A stretch of DNA of 5,861 nucleotides from a virus (taxonomy: Duplodnaviria; Heunggongvirae; Uroviricota; Caudoviricetes): the IMG/VR virus record IMGVR_UViG_3300029711_000171, positions 1 through 5,861 of that record, one strand, 5' to 3'. Position 1 is the stretch's first letter; each line of letters opens with the position of its first letter. The notes under the pieces were generated by a model that was not told the origin of the DNA, did not search any database, and saw only the letters and a program-made list of their open reading frames with translations. The translations under genes and the position numbers were made by a program. Positions 182 through 5,861 of this stretch are shown one piece after another.

Positions 182-427
182 ATGACTTTTGATGAAAAAG
201 AACTTGATAATGCAATTAATAAAATCATCGTAACGTCGCTCTTTTCCTGTCTCAGCGACACTCAGCAAAAACAGTTCTACGAATCGGCTTTCAACATGAT
301 CGAGCGTTGTTGTTTCTGCGATGCCGACGAGTTACCTGAAAAAATCAGGAAACAGTTGGCTGATGCTCTTCGAGTGCGACTTTCTGACCAATTTTCTGAA
401 ATGTACTCTCCGAATTTGGACAAATAG
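182..427 (+). CDS. Hypothetical small protein (81 aa), no recognisable domain
   Basis: ORF with ATG at 182 preceded by AAGGA (170..174) at about 7 nt spacing; the translation looks protein-like. Its 3' end overlaps the convergent minus-strand ORF 345..620 by 83 bp, so one of the two may be spurious. Confidence 0.4.
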   Translation: MTFDEKELDNAINKIIVTSLFSCLSDTQQKQFYESAFNMIERCCFCDADELPEKIRKQLADALRVRLSDQFSEMYSPNLDK

Positions 428-620
428 AAAAAGGCCATTTCCATTCAGGGTCTGATGGAAAGACTTCAGCCTGTTCCAAAGCACGGCGTAAAGAGAATAC
501 AACTCCAGCCATAATCTGATGTTTCCCATTGGTCCAGCTATCGCCGCTCTGATCTACAGGAGCGGCTATGTCGCATGACCAAACGACTTCACCACTATTG
601 TTTAAAATCTGGACTTTCAT
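345..620 (-). CDS. Hypothetical protein (91 aa), second gene of the leftward operon
   Basis: Minus-strand ATG at 618..620 with a GGAGG Shine-Dalgarno (complement of 633..637) that lies inside the last codons of the upstream gene 629..850, a typical operon arrangement. No domain recognised. The C-terminal third overlaps plus-strand ORF 182..427. Confidence 0.45.
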   Translation of the reverse strand: MKVQILNNSGEVVWSCDIAAPVDQSGDSWTNGKHQIMAGVVFSLRRALEQAEVFPSDPEWKWPFSICPNSESTFQKIGQKVALEEHQPTVS

Positions 621-628
621 TTTGTTCT

Positions 629-850
629 TTAACCTCCAGATTTCCGCGCATCTAAAGGCGCATTCTCATTTGGTGTGAACCGAATAGTTGTGCTGCTATT
701 GATTAATGCCCCGACACACAAGACTACGCACTCAGAGCAGATAGCAACTTCATCTTTTCCGCCTTTGGCGATGATTTTTTTTGCCTGCAGCTCGTTTGCG
801 CCACAAAACGAGCATGTGAAATAACGGTTCATTTGCGCTCTCTTACACAT
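629..850 (-). CDS. Small ClpX-type C4 zinc-finger (ClpX zinc-binding-domain-like) protein; possible alternative start at the internal Met (ATG complement of 830..832)
   Basis: The translation contains CSFCG-x19-ICSECVVLC, which closely matches the N-terminal zinc-binding domain of ClpX as I recall it ([31 protein letters not shown]). The internal Met has an AGAGAG purine-rich stretch upstream; the first ATG has no clear SD. Confidence 0.65.
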   Translation of the reverse strand: MCKRAQMNRYFTCSFCGANELQAKKIIAKGGKDEVAICSECVVLCVGALINSSTTIRFTPNENAPLDARKSGG

Positions 851-930
851 AGTATTTAACGAATCATCCGGTCATTCATACGCCACCGGCGGCTACTTCG
901 TGGGCGTCCTGCCTGTTTGTTGTTTCTCTT

Positions 931-964
931 GGGTACATTATGTATCTCATAGGTACATTGTCAA
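931..964 (-). promoter_or_regulatory. PL-like sigma70 promoter candidate overlapped by two direct GGTACATT repeats (putative left operator)
   Basis: On the minus strand: -35 TTGACA (complement of 959..964), 16-bp spacer, -10 CATAAT (complement of 937..942). GGTACATT occurs at 932..939 and 952..959, 20 bp apart, overlapping the -10 and the -35/spacer. The GTACA core is shared with the palindromes between the repressor and cro. Confidence 0.45.
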
Positions 965-968
965 GTAT

Positions 969-990
969 AAAAAAACCTGCCGAAGCAGGT
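969..990 (-). terminator. Rho-independent terminator of the repressor transcript
   Basis: Minus strand reads ACCTGC-TTCG-GCAGGT followed by TTTTTT (stem 975..980 with 985..990, loop 981..984, T-run from the complement of 969..974), about 14 nt downstream of the repressor stop at 1004..1006. Confidence 0.6.
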
Positions 991-1003
991 TCATAAACAT
1001 TGA

Positions 1004-1678
1004 TTAGGCTTTGATTTTGTATCTTCTTGGTTTTCCTGAGAAAATCACAGTTCCAATTATAGAGCAATTACCGTTGATCTTAATGTAAGGCTCAGGCCAG
1101 TTTGGGTTTAACGCTTTGAGATAACGCTGTGTCCCATCTTCTATCAACCTTTTGAAGGTGGTTTCACCTGTATCGTGCATCAATGCAATAACGTCGTCAC
1201 CGTGGCAGGCAGGTACTTCAGGATCGACAAAAATCATGTCTCCCGGGCGGTACTCATCAATCATTGAATCACCTATCACCCGCAAGATATAAGTCATTTC
1301 CCCACAGGGTACAGGGCAGGGATACGTTTCTGCTGTGCTCAAATCAACCTCAGAATATCCAACTTCTTTCCATGCTCCGGCCTGTACCCATGATATGACA
1401 GGGACTAATGTGATTTGTTTATTAGTGATTGAAACATCAGGTTTTTTTGTGATGTTCGTTGTCTGGTGTTCTTGATCGAGCCATCCGACAGGCAGGTCGA
1501 AACATTTTTCGATGTGTCGTGCCATGCTGTCACCGATATTTTTAGTAGCACCATCTCCCATAAACCTGCTGGTCTGGGTTGGCTCGCGATCAATCATAGT
1601 GGCAAAGGAAGAATTCCCGCCAACACCATCTCTCAGTTTTCTGGCGTTAGACCGCCGGATGTCATGGATTGTTTTCAT
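1004..1678 (-). CDS. Phage CI/LexA-type repressor with N-terminal HTH and C-terminal S24 peptidase (autocleavage) domain
   Basis: 224-aa ORF. The C-terminal half has the S24 hallmarks: an Ala-Gly cleavage-site candidate (VQAGAW), a serine nucleophile in the GDSM motif and a lysine in TFKRL, at LexA/lambda CI-like spacing. The N-terminal 70 aa are basic with a helix-turn-helix character. Divergent from a Cro-like gene. Confidence 0.9.
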   Translation of the reverse strand: MKTIHDIRRSNARKLRDGVGGNSSFATMIDREPTQTSRFMGDGATKNIGDSMARHIEKCFDLPVGWLDQEHQTTNITKKPDVSITNKQITLVPVISWVQAGAWKEVGYSEVDLSTAETYPCPVPCGEMTYILRVIGDSMIDEYRPGDMIFVDPEVPACHGDDVIALMHDTGETTFKRLIEDGTQRYLKALNPNWPEPYIKINGNCSIIGTVIFSGKPRRYKIKA

Positions 1679-1694
1679 AACGAAATTAAAACCC

Positions 1695-1713
1695 TTGTAC
1701 CGTTAAGGTACAA
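1695..1713. promoter_or_regulatory. Operator-like perfect palindrome TTGTACC-GTTAA-GGTACAA
   Basis: Perfect 7-bp inverted repeat with a 5-bp spacer, 17 bp upstream of the repressor start codon, in the repressor/cro intergenic region. Confidence 0.5.
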
Positions 1714-1742
1714 GTATCTTGAAGGTTCATTTTAATCATGTA

Positions 1743-1765
1743 ATATGTACACTGGAGGTACATAT
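1743..1765. promoter_or_regulatory. Operator-like perfect palindrome ATATGTAC-ACTGGAG-GTACATAT overlapping the cro promoter and RBS
   Basis: Perfect 8-bp inverted repeat with a 7-bp spacer. It overlaps a candidate -10 (TAATAT, 1741..1746; candidate -35 TTGAAG, 1719..1724; 16-bp spacer) and the GGAGG SD of cro (1754..1758). The GTACA core is shared with 1695..1713 and with the repeats at 932..959. Confidence 0.5.
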
Positions 1766-1768
1766 TGT

Positions 1769-1978
1769 ATGAAAGCGTATTGGGACTCTTTAACCAAAGA
1801 ACAGCAGGGCGAGTTGGCCGGAAAAGTTGGCTCAACACCTGGCTACTTACGGCTGGTTTTCAATGGCTATAAAAAAGCCAGTTTTGTGCTGGCTAAAAAA
1901 CTTGAGCAATGCACGTCAGGTGCAATTACGAAATCTGACTTAAGACCGGATAAAGAAACCGATTATCGCTCATGGTGA
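1769..1978 (+). CDS. Cro/YdaS-like small HTH DNA-binding protein (lytic-side regulator)
   Basis: ATG at 1769 with GGAGG 10 nt upstream. The ORF track starts at 1745, but that upstream ATG lies inside the palindrome and has no SD. The translation has the small-HTH pattern and a GAITKSDLRPD motif like Cro/YdaS-family proteins. Divergent from the S24 repressor. Confidence 0.7.
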   Translation: MKAYWDSLTKEQQGELAGKVGSTPGYLRLVFNGYKKASFVLAKKLEQCTSGAITKSDLRPDKETDYRSW

Positions 1979-2353
1979 GACACTCTCCGTACTGGAGTTT
2001 GATGAACCCACCGGGAAGGATGTCCGCGAGCTGGGGTATCCCTACCAGATGAATCAGGATGAGTCCGTCAGACTTCTGGCGCATGTGGTGTCGAAATACA
2101 TTGTGCGGCTGGCGAAAGTGCCGCAAAGCTCTGTCGACCAGATGTCTCCGGCAGACCTGAATGCAGCGGCGTGGCTTGTGGCTGGTTTTTTCCTCCAGGC
2201 CTGACGGCTGAATACCTCACTGATCGCTTCTTTGACTGCGCCAGCTACTGGCGCATTAATCCCTTCGAATTGCTGAATATGCCGATCAGTGAAATTCCCT
2301 TGCTGGTCAGTCAGGCAAACAGGATAGAGCAGGAGAAACGCACACATGGCTGA
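1944..2353 (+). CDS. Tail assembly chaperone (lambda G/GT, P2 E/E+E' type) made by programmed -1 frameshift; apparently 5'-incomplete with no in-frame ATG/GTG/TTG before codon 36
   Basis: Zero-frame open reading 1944..2204 (stop TGA 2202..2204) and a -1 frame continuing to 2353, overlapping the tape measure start at 2346 by 8 nt. The slippery heptamer T TTT TTC (2186..2192) sits 10 nt before the zero-frame stop. Position immediately upstream of the tape measure gene is the conserved chaperone location. The first in-frame ATG is at 2049 and has no SD. Confidence 0.55.
2186..2192 (+). promoter_or_regulatory. Candidate -1 ribosomal frameshift slippery heptanucleotide T_TTT_TTC
   Basis: X XXY YYZ pattern in the zero frame (TTT 2187..2189, TTC 2190..2192). 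Slipping back 1 nt gives the FFPPGLTAEYL... extension that is open to 2353. Confidence 0.5.
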
Positions 2354-4178
2354 ATTTGAGCTTAAGGCGTTGATCACCGGTGTCGACAGGCTTTCTCCCG
2401 CGCTGTCGAAAATGCAAAAGAAAATCCGGGGATTTAAACGCCAGGCGGAAGAGGCGTCACAGGGTGGGCTGGCGCTTGGTGGCGGATTGGCAGCGGGGCT
2501 GACGCTTTCCCTGAAATCTTATGCCGATCAGGAAAACGCCGCTACCGGGCTGAAAGTCGCCATGATGGATGCGAACGGCGAGGTTGGAAAGAGCTTTCAG
2601 GACATCAATAAACTGGCTATTGGCCTGGGTAACCAGCTACCCGGTACAACGGCTGATTTCCAGAACATGATGCAGATGCTGGTGCGTCAGGGGATCCCGG
2701 CAGAAAACATTCTGGGTGGTGTGGGTAAAGCGACAGCTTATCTTGCGGTACAACTGAAAAAAACACCGGAAGCGGCTGCCGAGTTTGCCGCAAAGATGCA
2801 GGATGCTACCGGAACGGCCTCAGAAGACATGATGGGGCTGTTCGACACAATTCAGAAGGCGTTTTATCTGGGCGTTGACGACACCAACATGCTGTCATTC
2901 TTCACTAAAACCAGCTCTGTTCTGAAGATGGTGAATAAGGACGGTCTTCAGGCTGCACAGAGTCTTGCCCCCATCAGTGTCATGATGGATCAGATGGGGA
3001 TGAACGGGGAGTCGGCAGGTAATGCCCTGCGAAAAGTTATCCAGTCCGGATTAAGCGTTAAGAAAATCAGGGACGTCAATAAAATCATGGCCCGCCAGAA
3101 ACTCGGGGTACAGCTCGATTTTACTGATGGCAAAGGGAGTTTTGGCGGTCTTGATAACATGTTCGGGCAACTGGCAAAGCTGCGAAAACTGACCGACGTT
3201 AAGCGAACCGGTGTACTTAAGGCAATATTTGGTGATGATGCCGAAACCCTTCAGGTGGTCAATGCACTAATCGATAAAGGAAAGGATGGCTACGATCAGA
3301 TCCAGCAGAAGATGAATAAACAGGCCAGCCTGAATAAACGTGTTCAGGCACAGCTTGGTACGCTGTCCAACCTGTGGGAGGCAATGACAGGGACCGCAAC
3401 TAACGGCCTTGCGGCTATTGGCGGCGCATTTTCTGGTGACGCTAAAAATATCACGCAATGGCTGGGGGAGTTGGGGGAAAAATTCACGAAGTTTGCGGAT
3501 GAAAATCCCCGGGTTATTCGCGGCGTCGTCGGGCTTGCTGCCGGTCTTGCGATTCTGAAACTGGGATTGATGGGCGTGGGCAGTGCCATCAGTATTGTCA
3601 GCAGGATTATGTCGATGACGCCGATTGGCATGATTGCGACGGCGATTGCTCTGGCTGCGGGATTAATTATCACTAACTGGGATGTTGTCGGACCTTATTT
3701 TAAGAAGCTCTGGGAAACCATTGGTCCTTATTTTGAGGCTGGCTGGGAACTTCTGAAGAAGGTTTTTGCCTGGTCGCCGCTGGGGATGGTGATCAATAAC
3801 TGGGGACCGGTTGTTAAGTGGTTTCAGGATATGTGGGATAAGCTGAAGCCAATTATTGAGTGGTTTACCGACAGTTCCGGTGACACGGTCGATGCCATTA
3901 ACTCTGCGCAGTGGGGCGCGGGTGCTTATGATGCTTATGGGACGGGAATACCGGCGCGGGGATACACACCTTATCCGGCGGTAGATCTGGCTCAGTCAAA
4001 CAACGCCTCCGATGCCACAGGCCCGAATCCCTTCATGATTAACAAAGCTTCTGCGCCAAAAGTTGATGGTGAGATCAAGGTATCATTTATAAATATGCCA
4101 CCAGGTATGCGGGTTACGGAAACACGCTCCAGTGGCATTGATATAAATCACGATGTTGGCTATACCCGATTTTGGTAG
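2346..4178 (+). CDS. Phage tail tape measure protein (610 aa)
   Basis: ATG at 2346 with AGGAG (2331..2335) upstream. Long Ala/Gly/Gln/Met-rich, largely helical-looking N-terminal region, a hydrophobic membrane-like segment (VIRGVVGLAAGLAILKLGLMGVGSAISIV...IGMIATAIALAAGLII), then Trp-rich repeats (GPYFKKLWETIGPYFEAGWELL...NNWGPVVKWFQDMWDKL). Sits directly after the frameshifting chaperone. Confidence 0.88.
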   Translation: MAEFELKALITGVDRLSPALSKMQKKIRGFKRQAEEASQGGLALGGGLAAGLTLSLKSYADQENAATGLKVAMMDANGEVGKSFQDINKLAIGLGNQLPGTTADFQNMMQMLVRQGIPAENILGGVGKATAYLAVQLKKTPEAAAEFAAKMQDATGTASEDMMGLFDTIQKAFYLGVDDTNMLSFFTKTSSVLKMVNKDGLQAAQSLAPISVMMDQMGMNGESAGNALRKVIQSGLSVKKIRDVNKIMARQKLGVQLDFTDGKGSFGGLDNMFGQLAKLRKLTDVKRTGVLKAIFGDDAETLQVVNALIDKGKDGYDQIQQKMNKQASLNKRVQAQLGTLSNLWEAMTGTATNGLAAIGGAFSGDAKNITQWLGELGEKFTKFADENPRVIRGVVGLAAGLAILKLGLMGVGSAISIVSRIMSMTPIGMIATAIALAAGLIITNWDVVGPYFKKLWETIGPYFEAGWELLKKVFAWSPLGMVINNWGPVVKWFQDMWDKLKPIIEWFTDSSGDTVDAINSAQWGAGAYDAYGTGIPARGYTPYPAVDLAQSNNASDATGPNPFMINKASAPKVDGEIKVSFINMPPGMRVTETRSSGIDINHDVGYTRFW

Positions 4179-4206
4179 CCAGGATTCCCCTCACAGGTAT
4201 TGCTGG

Positions 4207-4234
4207 TTGTAAGTCATAAATAGAGTGATAGAAT
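4207..4234 (+). promoter_or_regulatory. Candidate sigma70 promoter for the moron gene
   Basis: -35 TTGTAA (4207..4212), 16-bp spacer, extended -10 TGaTAGAAT (4226..4234), about 35 bp upstream of the ATG at 4270. Confidence 0.35.
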
Positions 4235-4269
4235 TAATGCACATTTAGAAAAATGTTAATAGGCGAAAA

Positions 4270-4800
4270 ATGAAAGGCTATATCACAGCAAGTGTAATTC
4301 TTGGAGCAGCGGCTATTTTTTCATCTCTCATAATCTCTGGCAACATCTCCTTTAAAGATGAACATATTATTCAGTTATCTGGAGGAGCCATAAAACTTGG
4401 TGATGTTTATAAAGAAAATAAATTGATAAGTGCAAAGATTATTTTTCCAGATAATCAGGGTGAACAGATTCTTGTTGTCGACGGCAATCCTGAAAACTTT
4501 AAGGAGGATTTTCAGGAGAAATTAAATAAAGTAATAAAAACTTTAAATGCGTCAAAGAAAAAAGATGAAGAGAAAGTTAGCCTGGATAATTTAAGTGTTA
4601 TTGAAGAGTCTAAACTAGAGCTCGTTTCTGCGGTGCGTTACTCTGCTCAGTATGTTCCTATGTTTACTCTGACGCTGGACAAAAAAGAAATTACCATGCC
4701 TAAAAATACGGTAATATTTCCATTTGCCAGCGATGAAACAGCTAAGTATTTAAATGAACAACAGCAAAAGTATAAAGATTCGTTGTTTCTGACTCGCTAA
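4270..4800 (+). CDS. Hypothetical membrane-anchored or secreted protein (176 aa), moron inserted in the tail operon
   Basis: Clean ORF, markedly more AT-rich than the flanking tail genes by eye. N-terminal hydrophobic segment (SVILGAAAIFSSLIISG) without a lipobox cysteine; the rest is Lys/Glu/Asp-rich. Flanked by its own promoter candidate and a strong intrinsic terminator. Confidence 0.7.
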   Translation: MKGYITASVILGAAAIFSSLIISGNISFKDEHIIQLSGGAIKLGDVYKENKLISAKIIFPDNQGEQILVVDGNPENFKEDFQEKLNKVIKTLNASKKKDEEKVSLDNLSVIEESKLELVSAVRYSAQYVPMFTLTLDKKEITMPKNTVIFPFASDETAKYLNEQQQKYKDSLFLTR

Positions 4801-4818
4801 TTAATAAAATTCATTACA

Positions 4819-4851
4819 AGGCCACCTTCTAATAGGTGGCTTTTTTATTTT
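4819..4851 (+). terminator. Rho-independent terminator after the moron gene
   Basis: GCCACC (4821..4826), 8-nt loop, GGTGGC (4835..4840), then TTTTTTATTTT (4841..4851), about 20 nt after the stop codon at 4798..4800. Confidence 0.75.
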
Positions 4852-4861
4852 CGGAGTGTAT

Positions 4862-5861
4862 ATGACGTGGAAAGACAGGCTTCAGGATGCGTCATTTCGA
4901 GGTGTGCCGTTTAAGGTTGAAGAAGAAAGTGCGGGAACCGGCCGTCGTGTGGAAACACACGAATATCCGAACCGCGACAAACCCTATACCGAAGATCTGG
5001 GAAAAGTCACTTTCCGCCCGTCCATCACGGCTTATGTGGTGGGAGATGACTGCTTTGACCAGCGCGATCGCCTGATTGACGCGCTGAATAAACCCGGTCC
5101 CGGCACGCTTGTCCACCCGACATACGGTGAGTTGAAAGTCTGTGTTGACGGGGAAGTTCGGGTCAGCACATCGAAGAGTGAAGGGCGTATTGTCCGCTTT
5201 GACCTGAAGTTTGTCGAAGCGGGAGATCTCTCTTACCCCACATCAGGCGTGGCGACGGCGCAGACGCTGATGTCATCCTGTTCTGCACTGGATGACTGCA
5301 TCAGTGACAGCTTCAGCGGTTTCAGTATCGATGGCGTGGCGGATTTTGTGCAGAACGACGTTATCGGTAATGCCAGCACAATGCTTGGGTATGTTTCTGA
5401 TGCGATGAAAGTGGTGGATTCTGCCGTATCGGATGCCGCCAGGCTGTTGCAGGGTGATATCTCGGTACTTCTGCCGCCGCCATCGTCAGGCAAAAATTTC
5501 GTTGAGCAGGTGCAGAAAATGTGGCGTACCGGNNNNNNNNNNNNNNNNNNNNNNNNNNNNNNNNNNNCTTTCCGGTGTCAGCCTCGGCAGCGATCTGCAA
5601 CCGCGCGGCGTCTGGAAAACGGACAGTAAAACCACCGCCACGGCGACGCAGCAGCGTAACGTGGTTGCCAGCACCCTTCGTACGACCGCAATCAGCGAAG
5701 CGGCGTATGCCGTCATCCGATTGCCTGCGCCAACAACTTCCGCGGTGATGCAGAATGCCACAGTGGGGCAGGCAACAACACCTGCGCAGAGCACCGGTTG
5801 GCCTTCCGTCACGCATCCGGCACTGAACAATGCACCGGCGGTGAAAAACACGGTTGACCTG
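4862..5861 (+). CDS. Mu gpN-like DNA circulation protein (tail/baseplate component); 3' end beyond the window; interrupted by the N-run
   Basis: ATG at 4862 with GGAG (4853..4856) upstream. N-terminus MTWKDRLQDASFRGVPFKVEEE matches, from memory, the conserved N-terminal motif of the Mu N / DNA circulation protein family. An open frame resumes after the N-run in a different frame and stays open to 5861. Follows the tape measure as in Mu-type tail operons. Confidence 0.75.
5533..5567. other. Run of 35 N (assembly or scaffold gap)
   Basis: Literal n characters in the sequence, inside the gpN-like gene. Confidence 0.99.

Follow-up and report, generated by a model that had tools for sequence, protein, structure and literature searches.

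How did a phage immunity region come to lie directly against a tail operon whose first gene lacks a start codon? The question is raised by the window, that is, the whole 5,861-nucleotide stretch of the virus record IMGVR_UViG_3300029711_000171 that was analyzed here. Read by its open reading frames (ORFs), the window carries from left to right three small early-left ORFs, a repressor gene, a control region, a cro gene (cro'), a tail assembly chaperone gene, a tape measure gene, a moron, and a DNA-circulation gene (Table 1). The initial annotation proposed that a large internal deletion or recombination had brought the start-less chaperone next to cro, and this was borne out, with ~19 kb lying between the breakpoints in intact relatives. 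The alignments show directly that the window is an e14/SfIV-type immunity region joined to an SfV/SfII-type Mu-like tail module by a large internal deletion. The element is almost certainly a defective prophage of the e14/SfV group in Escherichia coli, in which one deletion of ~18.9 kb, from codon 62 of cro through nucleotide 16 of the chaperone gene, joined the end of cro to the sixth chaperone codon.

Table 1. Features of the window, with coordinates counted from its first nucleotide
Feature	Positions	Strand	Basis
cI-type repressor, 224 aa, LexA-like S24 autopeptidase, e14 YmfK/CohE homologue	1004..1678	-	Pfam PF00717
Divergent cI/cro control region	1696..1762		Repeat families D7 and I7; promoter read from sequence
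Chimeric cro', 69 aa	1769..1978	+	SfIV Cro comparison; PHROG 35 (transcriptional repressor) on residues 1-62
Deletion junction, dinucleotide TA	1951..1952		BLAST blocks and base-level alignment
5'-truncated tail assembly chaperone (Phage_TAC_7, Mu gp41 / P2 gpE type)	1951..2204	+	PF10109; ECZP248 comparison
Slippery heptamer and -1 frame extension ORF	2186..2353	+	Sequence reading; phrog_32181
Tail tape measure protein, intact, 610 aa	2346..4178	+	Pfam PF10145
Low-GC moron, 176 aa, then intrinsic terminator 4818-4843	4270..4843	+	phrog_5485
DNA circulation / baseplate hub protein (Mu gp43-like), runs past window end	4862..5861	+	phrog_184

Two parental blocks meet at a shared dinucleotide

Queried by megablast against two collections, 5,426 complete E. 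coli genomes and 50,697 phage records, the full window fell in both into two clean blocks, 1 to 1952 and 1951 to 5861, and no single record among these genomes and phages covered the two. Over positions 857 to 1952, the left block has 98.5% nucleotide identity to ymfK-ymfT of the K-12 prophage e14 and 98.6% to the cI-Cro region of SfIV. The right block has 96.5 to 99.1% identity to the tail module of SfV, SfII, SfI, and E. coli prophages, and the GC content rises from ~41% left of the junction to ~55% right of it. Base-level alignment locates the parental switch at the TA of 1951 to 1952, the sole overlap of the two blocks (with a slash at the switch, the parents read ...CCGGATA/TCTAT in cro and ...TTGAGTTA/AAGAAACC in the chaperone gene). 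Alignment to intact related prophages, as first suggested, has therefore placed the breakpoint to the nucleotide. A cro gene directly beside a chaperone gene in intact relatives would speak against a deletion; neither the E. coli genomes (5,426) nor the phage records (50,697) contained this arrangement.

The deleted segment holds replication, lysis, head, sheath, and tube genes

What was removed can be read from E. coli CAVP776, whose intact prophage has the ymfK/ymfT immunity type and the same kind of tail module, moron included, and is bordered by the same genes as the remnant on L004, a longer sister contig of the window. On the CAVP776 locus (L012), the breakpoints fall at 34699 and 15783, 18,917 bp apart; the distance is ~19.3 kb in ECZP248 and ~19.9 kb in phage SfIV, and the gene order is alike. 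Between them, CAVP776 encodes ymfL/ymfM, replication and Nin-type genes, Q, holin, lysin, spanin, HNH, and terminase, followed by portal, protease, capsid, connectors, tail terminator, sheath, and tube. The earlier observation that replication, lysis, head, sheath, and tube genes are missing between cro and the chaperone is thus upheld, and all of them can be assigned to these 18,917 bp. Since the full gene set of a viable phage is missing, the element is a defective remnant and not a functional member of its group. On the virion map of SfIV, the lost segment runs from 29,486 to 39,758 and then from 1 to ~9,640, crossing the genome ends; it is therefore unbroken only when the genome is circular or integrated, consistent with a deletion from a resident prophage.

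The intact SfV group (SfV, SfII, SfI, and SfIV, and the prophages of CAVP776, ECZP248, and 2022CK-00450) shares the gene order of the window on both sides of the scar. Its members differ in having ~19 kb between cro and the chaperone, devoted to replication, regulation, lysis, packaging, head, sheath, and tube, as well as a 66-aa Cro and an 89-aa chaperone.

Both genes at the scar are truncated

The cro' ORF starts at ATG 1769, with a GGAGG ahead of it at 1754 to 1758, and stops at the TGA of 1976 to 1978. The end at 1978 originally given to the Cro-like gene is correct, and comparison with an intact Cro adds a refinement: cro is truncated as well, its last eight codons being out-of-frame chaperone DNA. 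The intact Cro of SfIV has 66 aa and ends in RPDIYPKD, whereas Cro' has 69 aa and ends in RPDKETDYRSW. Native residues 1 to 61 (YmfT/CroE type) are kept, and the last five residues, IYPKD, have been exchanged for eight, KETDYRSW, read from chaperone DNA in the wrong frame. The helix-turn-helix domain is still present, followed by this new tail of 8 residues. A Cro-chaperone fusion was also considered and is ruled out, the chaperone frame being +1 relative to the cro frame and cro' ending at its own stop codon.

The chaperone frame is open from 1944, after a TAA at 1941 to 1943, to a TGA at 2202 to 2204, and it matches PF10109 (Phage_TAC_7) in Pfam at 53.1 bits against a cutoff of 25, over profile positions 4 to 78 of 79. 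The 35 codons in 1944 to 2048 include no ATG, GTG, or TTG; a canonical start first appears at ATG 2049 (codon 36), and no Shine-Dalgarno-like sequence lies ahead of it (agctggggtatccctaccag) or of any other candidate chaperone start. The near-cognate codons in this stretch are solely ATA 1950, ATT 1962, ATC 1965, CTG 1992, and CTG 2031. All coordinates first reported for this frame, from its opening at 1944 to the unaccompanied ATG at 2049, are correct. By our own arithmetic, however, 35 codons free of a canonical start have a chance of ~19%, (61/64)^35, so that the absence of a start proves nothing by itself and the case rests on homology to relatives.

That homology is clear-cut in extent. 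The intact chaperone gene of ECZP248 has 270 nt, begins MKELELKKPITAHGE..., and encodes 89 aa with the N terminus MKELELKKPI. The window matches it from nt 17 onward; the first 16 nt, comprising the ATG, four more codons, and 1 nt of codon 6, are gone. With them went the overlap with the tube gene stop codon upstream, and 83 of its native 89 codons are left. The description of the chaperone as start-less therefore stands, but its loss amounts to the first 16 nt rather than 35 codons. Stripped of its start codon, ribosome-binding site, and coupling to the tube gene, the chaperone is very probably not translated.

A programmed frameshift is conserved in tail chaperone genes. A slippery heptamer, T_TTT_TTC, is present at 2186 to 2192 near the 3' end of the truncated gene, and a -1 frame extension ORF that ends at 2353, overlapping the tape measure start, matches phrog_32181 at E = 4e-40. 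The G/GT-type arrangement (P2 E/E+E') is retained although the chaperone start is gone, and frameshifting itself is predicted from its conservation in such genes.

The immunity region is intact

The repressor and its operators are intact. The repressor matches PF00717 (Peptidase_S24) in Pfam at 92.8 bits, with a cutoff of 23.3, and carries what we take, by eye and from knowledge of LexA, to be the Ala-Gly site (VQAGAW), the serine (GDSM), and the lysine (FKRL). With this domain, the Ala-Gly site, and the Ser/Lys dyad all present, it belongs by sequence to the LexA-like S24 type and is predicted to be cleaved in the SOS response. Two 17-nt operator-like palindromes of the form TGTAC-N7-GTACA, TGTACCGTTAAGGTACA (1696 to 1712) and TGTACACTGGAGGTACA (1746 to 1762), lie in the divergent control region. 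Degenerate copies occur at 921 to 937 and 941 to 957, downstream of cI, and adjoin a strong minus-strand promoter-like site at 964 to 937 (11/12 matches). The palindromes are probably the O_R-like and O_L-like sites of an e14-type repressor.

The candidate cro promoter, read by eye, consists of TTGAAG (1719 to 1724), a 16-nt spacer, and TAATAT (1741 to 1746), and the palindromes flank or overlap it. It is absent from the consensus scan list because its score of 8/12 lies under the scanner threshold; it would serve as the promoter of cro'. A terminator scan found no convincing plus-strand terminator between cro and 4818, and its matches from cro into the tail genes were weak and intragenic, two of them within native cro sequence. 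That the tail genes now stand under an SOS-inducible cro promoter, as the initial annotation had it, is plausible and a reasonable reading of this architecture. For e14, the CI-like repressor CohE is described as resembling phage repressors that respond to SOS, and ymfM, which lies downstream of cro, brings about SOS-inducible filamentation (bioRxiv 10.1101/2020.11.19.390815).

On the far side of the repressor lie the small early-left ORFs, to which PADLOC, NCBIfam, and Pfam assigned no function. Two of them, 182 to 427 (plus strand) and 345 to 620 (minus strand), are convergent, with 3' ends overlapping by ~80 nt, and are full-length matches of phrog_3311 and phrog_3195 (function unknown). 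The third, at 629 to 850 (minus strand), adjoins the repressor and is located in a segment, ~150 to 857, that e14 and SfIV do not have; its 73 aa are essentially one ClpX-type C4 zinc finger (PF06689 in Pfam, 41.3 bits, cutoff 27). A stand-alone mimic of the ClpX N-domain in a phage early-left region could interfere with substrate recognition by ClpXP.

The retained tail genes form a mosaic

To the right of the scar, the Mu-type tail order of chaperone, tape measure, and DNA circulation is kept. The tape measure gene matches PF10145 at 93.8 bits, has its own AGGAG upstream, and encodes a protein equal in length to that in intact prophages. The moron has a GC content of 33%, a hydrophobic N-terminal segment, a promoter-like site at 4207 to 4234, and a strong terminator behind it; it matches phrog_5485 (function unknown) at E = 4e-108 and has no match in Pfam, NCBIfam, or PADLOC. 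It lies between the tape measure and DNA-circulation genes and is present in ECZP248, 2022CK-00450, and CAVP776 and absent from SfII and SfIV, and the 55% query coverage of the hits suggests that it is absent from SfV and SfI too. The DNA-circulation gene matches phrog_184 (baseplate hub) at E = 1e-95 and corresponds to the gene annotated "DNA circularization protein" in ECZP248. It is interrupted by a run of N at 5533 to 5567, which measures 35 nt, versus 49 nt at the same place in all relatives; the reading frame across this gap is therefore unreliable, and the stop codon at 5629 is an artefact.

The tail module itself is mosaic. Positions 1951 to 3592 are identical to the 2022CK-00450 prophage and to contig L004, and positions 3480 to 5861 are nearly identical to ECZP248 (1 mismatch), with the crossover at ~3480 to 3593, within the tape measure gene.

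The junction is real but rare

The junction is real but rare. As a junction-specific marker we used the 69-aa Cro' in exact-protein look-ups, which recovered it on 6 contigs from human-gut assemblies; the junction contigs seem to come from one cohort (PRJEB9576 / XIEH16), so that the independent hosts are few and their number is partly uncertain. In the cluster table of a 15-billion-protein collection, Cro' occurs on 5 contigs (JGI/IMG, Logan, and ENA) and in 0 NCBI genomes, and a 77-aa form of Cro' starting from ATG 1745 was not found in that collection. Exact nucleotide patterns did not recover the junction, which came through the Cro' exact-protein look-up only: the exact junction 29-mer had 0 occurrences in the GTDB species-representative genomes, and the exact junction 21-mer had 0 in the JGI metagenome contigs.

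Across the junction, contigs L005 and L006 match the window at 100% identity, and L004 (20.7 kb) is identical to it over 555 to 3592. In L004, the remnant is set in E. coli chromosomal sequence, with a sucrose (scr) gene island on one side and AraC / CP4-6-like genes (ykfI/yafW) on the other, the same setting as in CAVP776. The stretches examined around the L004 and CAVP776 sites showed no tRNA, and the ECZP248 copy lies at tRNA-Thr beside proA; thrW is the integration site described for SfI and SfV (PMC3636060) and is likewise that of SfII. Two extra deletions mark L004. One, at 8787 to 8788, fuses an integrase pseudogene with the early-left region at window position 555; the second, at 15136 to 15144, begins in the middle of a baseplate gpP-like gene and ends inside an IS5 element, the overlap there being 9 bp. 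These two further deletions indicate ongoing decay. Host genes follow directly after the truncated gpP-like gene, and the downstream baseplate and fibre genes are deleted. The check proposed at the outset, a search of the rest of the contig for sheath, tube, and baseplate genes, can be approached through this sister contig: the window has neither sheath nor tube, and the further-reaching L004 lacks both and has its gpP-like baseplate gene truncated. Its DNA-circulation gene is an intact ORF of 442 aa. Independently of these contigs, a second SfV-like prophage elsewhere in the genome could hold sheath, tube, or other phage genes.

Between the window and L004 there are 40 base differences. All fall within 3593 to 5455, over 1.6 kb rightward of the junction, and they follow two prophage alleles, 2022CK-00450-like on the left and ECZP248-like on the right. 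That the same junction arose twice was considered and is ruled out, since all differences are distal and their pattern is one of allele swapping between known prophage variants. The mosaic instead suggests that recombination with another SfV-like prophage came later, or that strains were mixed during assembly.

Comparison with known systems

The closest known element is the cryptic prophage e14 of E. coli K-12, which shares its phage group and its immunity region with the window and is likewise a defective SfV-like prophage resulting from internal in-line deletions; morphogenesis modules are common to SfI, SfV, and e14 (PMC3636060). The scars of e14 are different ones. The e14 gene ymfN is annotated as a replication protein/terminase chimera, and the portal fragment beeE abuts the baseplate J fragment jayE. 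The site also differs, being icd in e14 and the scr island / CP4-6-like genes for the element studied here. Moreover, e14 keeps ymfL/ymfM, the distal baseplate, and the fibre genes and has lost the region from sheath to baseplate, whereas the window element has lost everything from cro to tube and keeps the 5'-truncated chaperone, tape measure, and DNA-circulation genes. R-type tailocins, which are domesticated contractile tails, resemble the window in having tail genes without head genes downstream of a LexA-like repressor, but they retain the sheath and tube, a complete baseplate, fibres, and a lysis cassette, and the window and L004 have none of these. The element is a new instance of a well-known kind, the defective e14/SfV-type prophage, and not a tailocin.

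Proposed history and alternative explanations

The history that we propose starts from a phage of the e14/SfV group, in which lambdoid early genes are combined with a head of the HK97 type and a contractile tail of the Mu type, resident in the E. coli chromosome. With this genome integrated, or at least circular, a single illegitimate recombination at the 2-bp microhomology TA would have taken out ~18.9 kb. The late promoter and Q would have been lost with the deletion, which would leave the repressor-controlled cro promoter as the sole upstream promoter. The tail remnant would then be silent in the lysogenic state and, once the LexA-like repressor is cleaved in the SOS response, would be transcribed as a cro' read-through message. 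Its products cannot build a tail, because sheath and tube are gone and the sister copy is also without most of the baseplate. Most likely, the element is non-inducible and decaying, and the repressor, which would give immunity against e14-type phages, and perhaps the moron are the parts likeliest to be still functional.

Could the junction be an artefact of assembly, the contig wrongly joining the early and tail regions of one or of two co-resident prophages? The window does contain a run of N, its source is apparently metagenomic, and strain mixing could yield a tail part that is a mosaic of two known alleles. The identical junction nevertheless recurs in at least two sequencing runs and in a third assembly with a different naming scheme, and in L004 it is linked on either side to chromosomal sequence whose order and orientation are as expected. 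The contig names indicate de Bruijn assembly at k = 127, and the parents have only 2 bp in common, an overlap that a k-mer assembler cannot bridge without junction-spanning reads; an artefact is therefore very unlikely, and we give it next to no credence. If translation began at a non-canonical codon (ATA 1950 or ATT 1962), or gave a shortened 51-aa product from ATG 2049, the chaperone gene would not be dead, and its long open frame with most native codons, together with the intact frameshift site and extension ORF, is compatible with this. ATA and ATT are very poor initiators in E. coli, though, and the missing Shine-Dalgarno-like sequences and the lost coupling to the tube gene stop codon weigh against any such start; without tube and sheath, moreover, the chaperone would have nothing to assemble. 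We regard its production as highly unlikely.

Of the two fates first envisaged, decay of a prophage remnant or domestication of a tail fragment, the evidence favors decay: the junction is rare, L004 has suffered two further deletions, and sheath and tube are missing. A domesticated module would keep the tape measure, moron, and DNA-circulation genes under repressor and SOS control for the benefit of the host, as a tail-derived weapon, toxin, or defence. In its favor are the intact ORFs of the tape measure (610 aa), the moron (176 aa), and the DNA-circulation gene of L004 (442 aa), the intact repressor and operators, and a junction old enough for the distal tail region to have turned mosaic between two carriers. 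The ORFs, however, are intact because the event is recent, the sequence beside the junction being 100% identical to intact prophages, and there has been no time for selection to show. The element is also extremely rare (0 of 5,426 complete E. coli genomes and 0 GTDB representatives), the window and L004 are without sheath, tube, and lysis genes, the chaperone start is lost, and L004 has in addition lost its downstream baseplate and fibre genes behind a truncated gpP-like gene. Domestication is thus not supported, and we consider it very improbable. Equally improbable is the more specific version in which SOS read-through from the cro promoter yields the tape measure protein, the membrane-anchored moron product, or the two together, and the remnant is kept because the host uses them, for example to exclude related phages or to affect the envelope; if true, it would make the locus a minimal repressor-controlled "tail fragment" module and not junk.

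Implications

For annotation, the chaperone should be recorded as a 5'-truncated pseudogene and the 69-aa "Cro" as a chimeric truncation product, and the tail genes here should not be taken as evidence for an inducible phage or a tailocin. Beyond annotation, the importance of the locus is small. It is nonetheless a clean example of prophage decay, in which a single microhomology deletion strips the replication, lysis, and particle genes but leaves the immunity module in place, with additional deletions following in a sister lineage.
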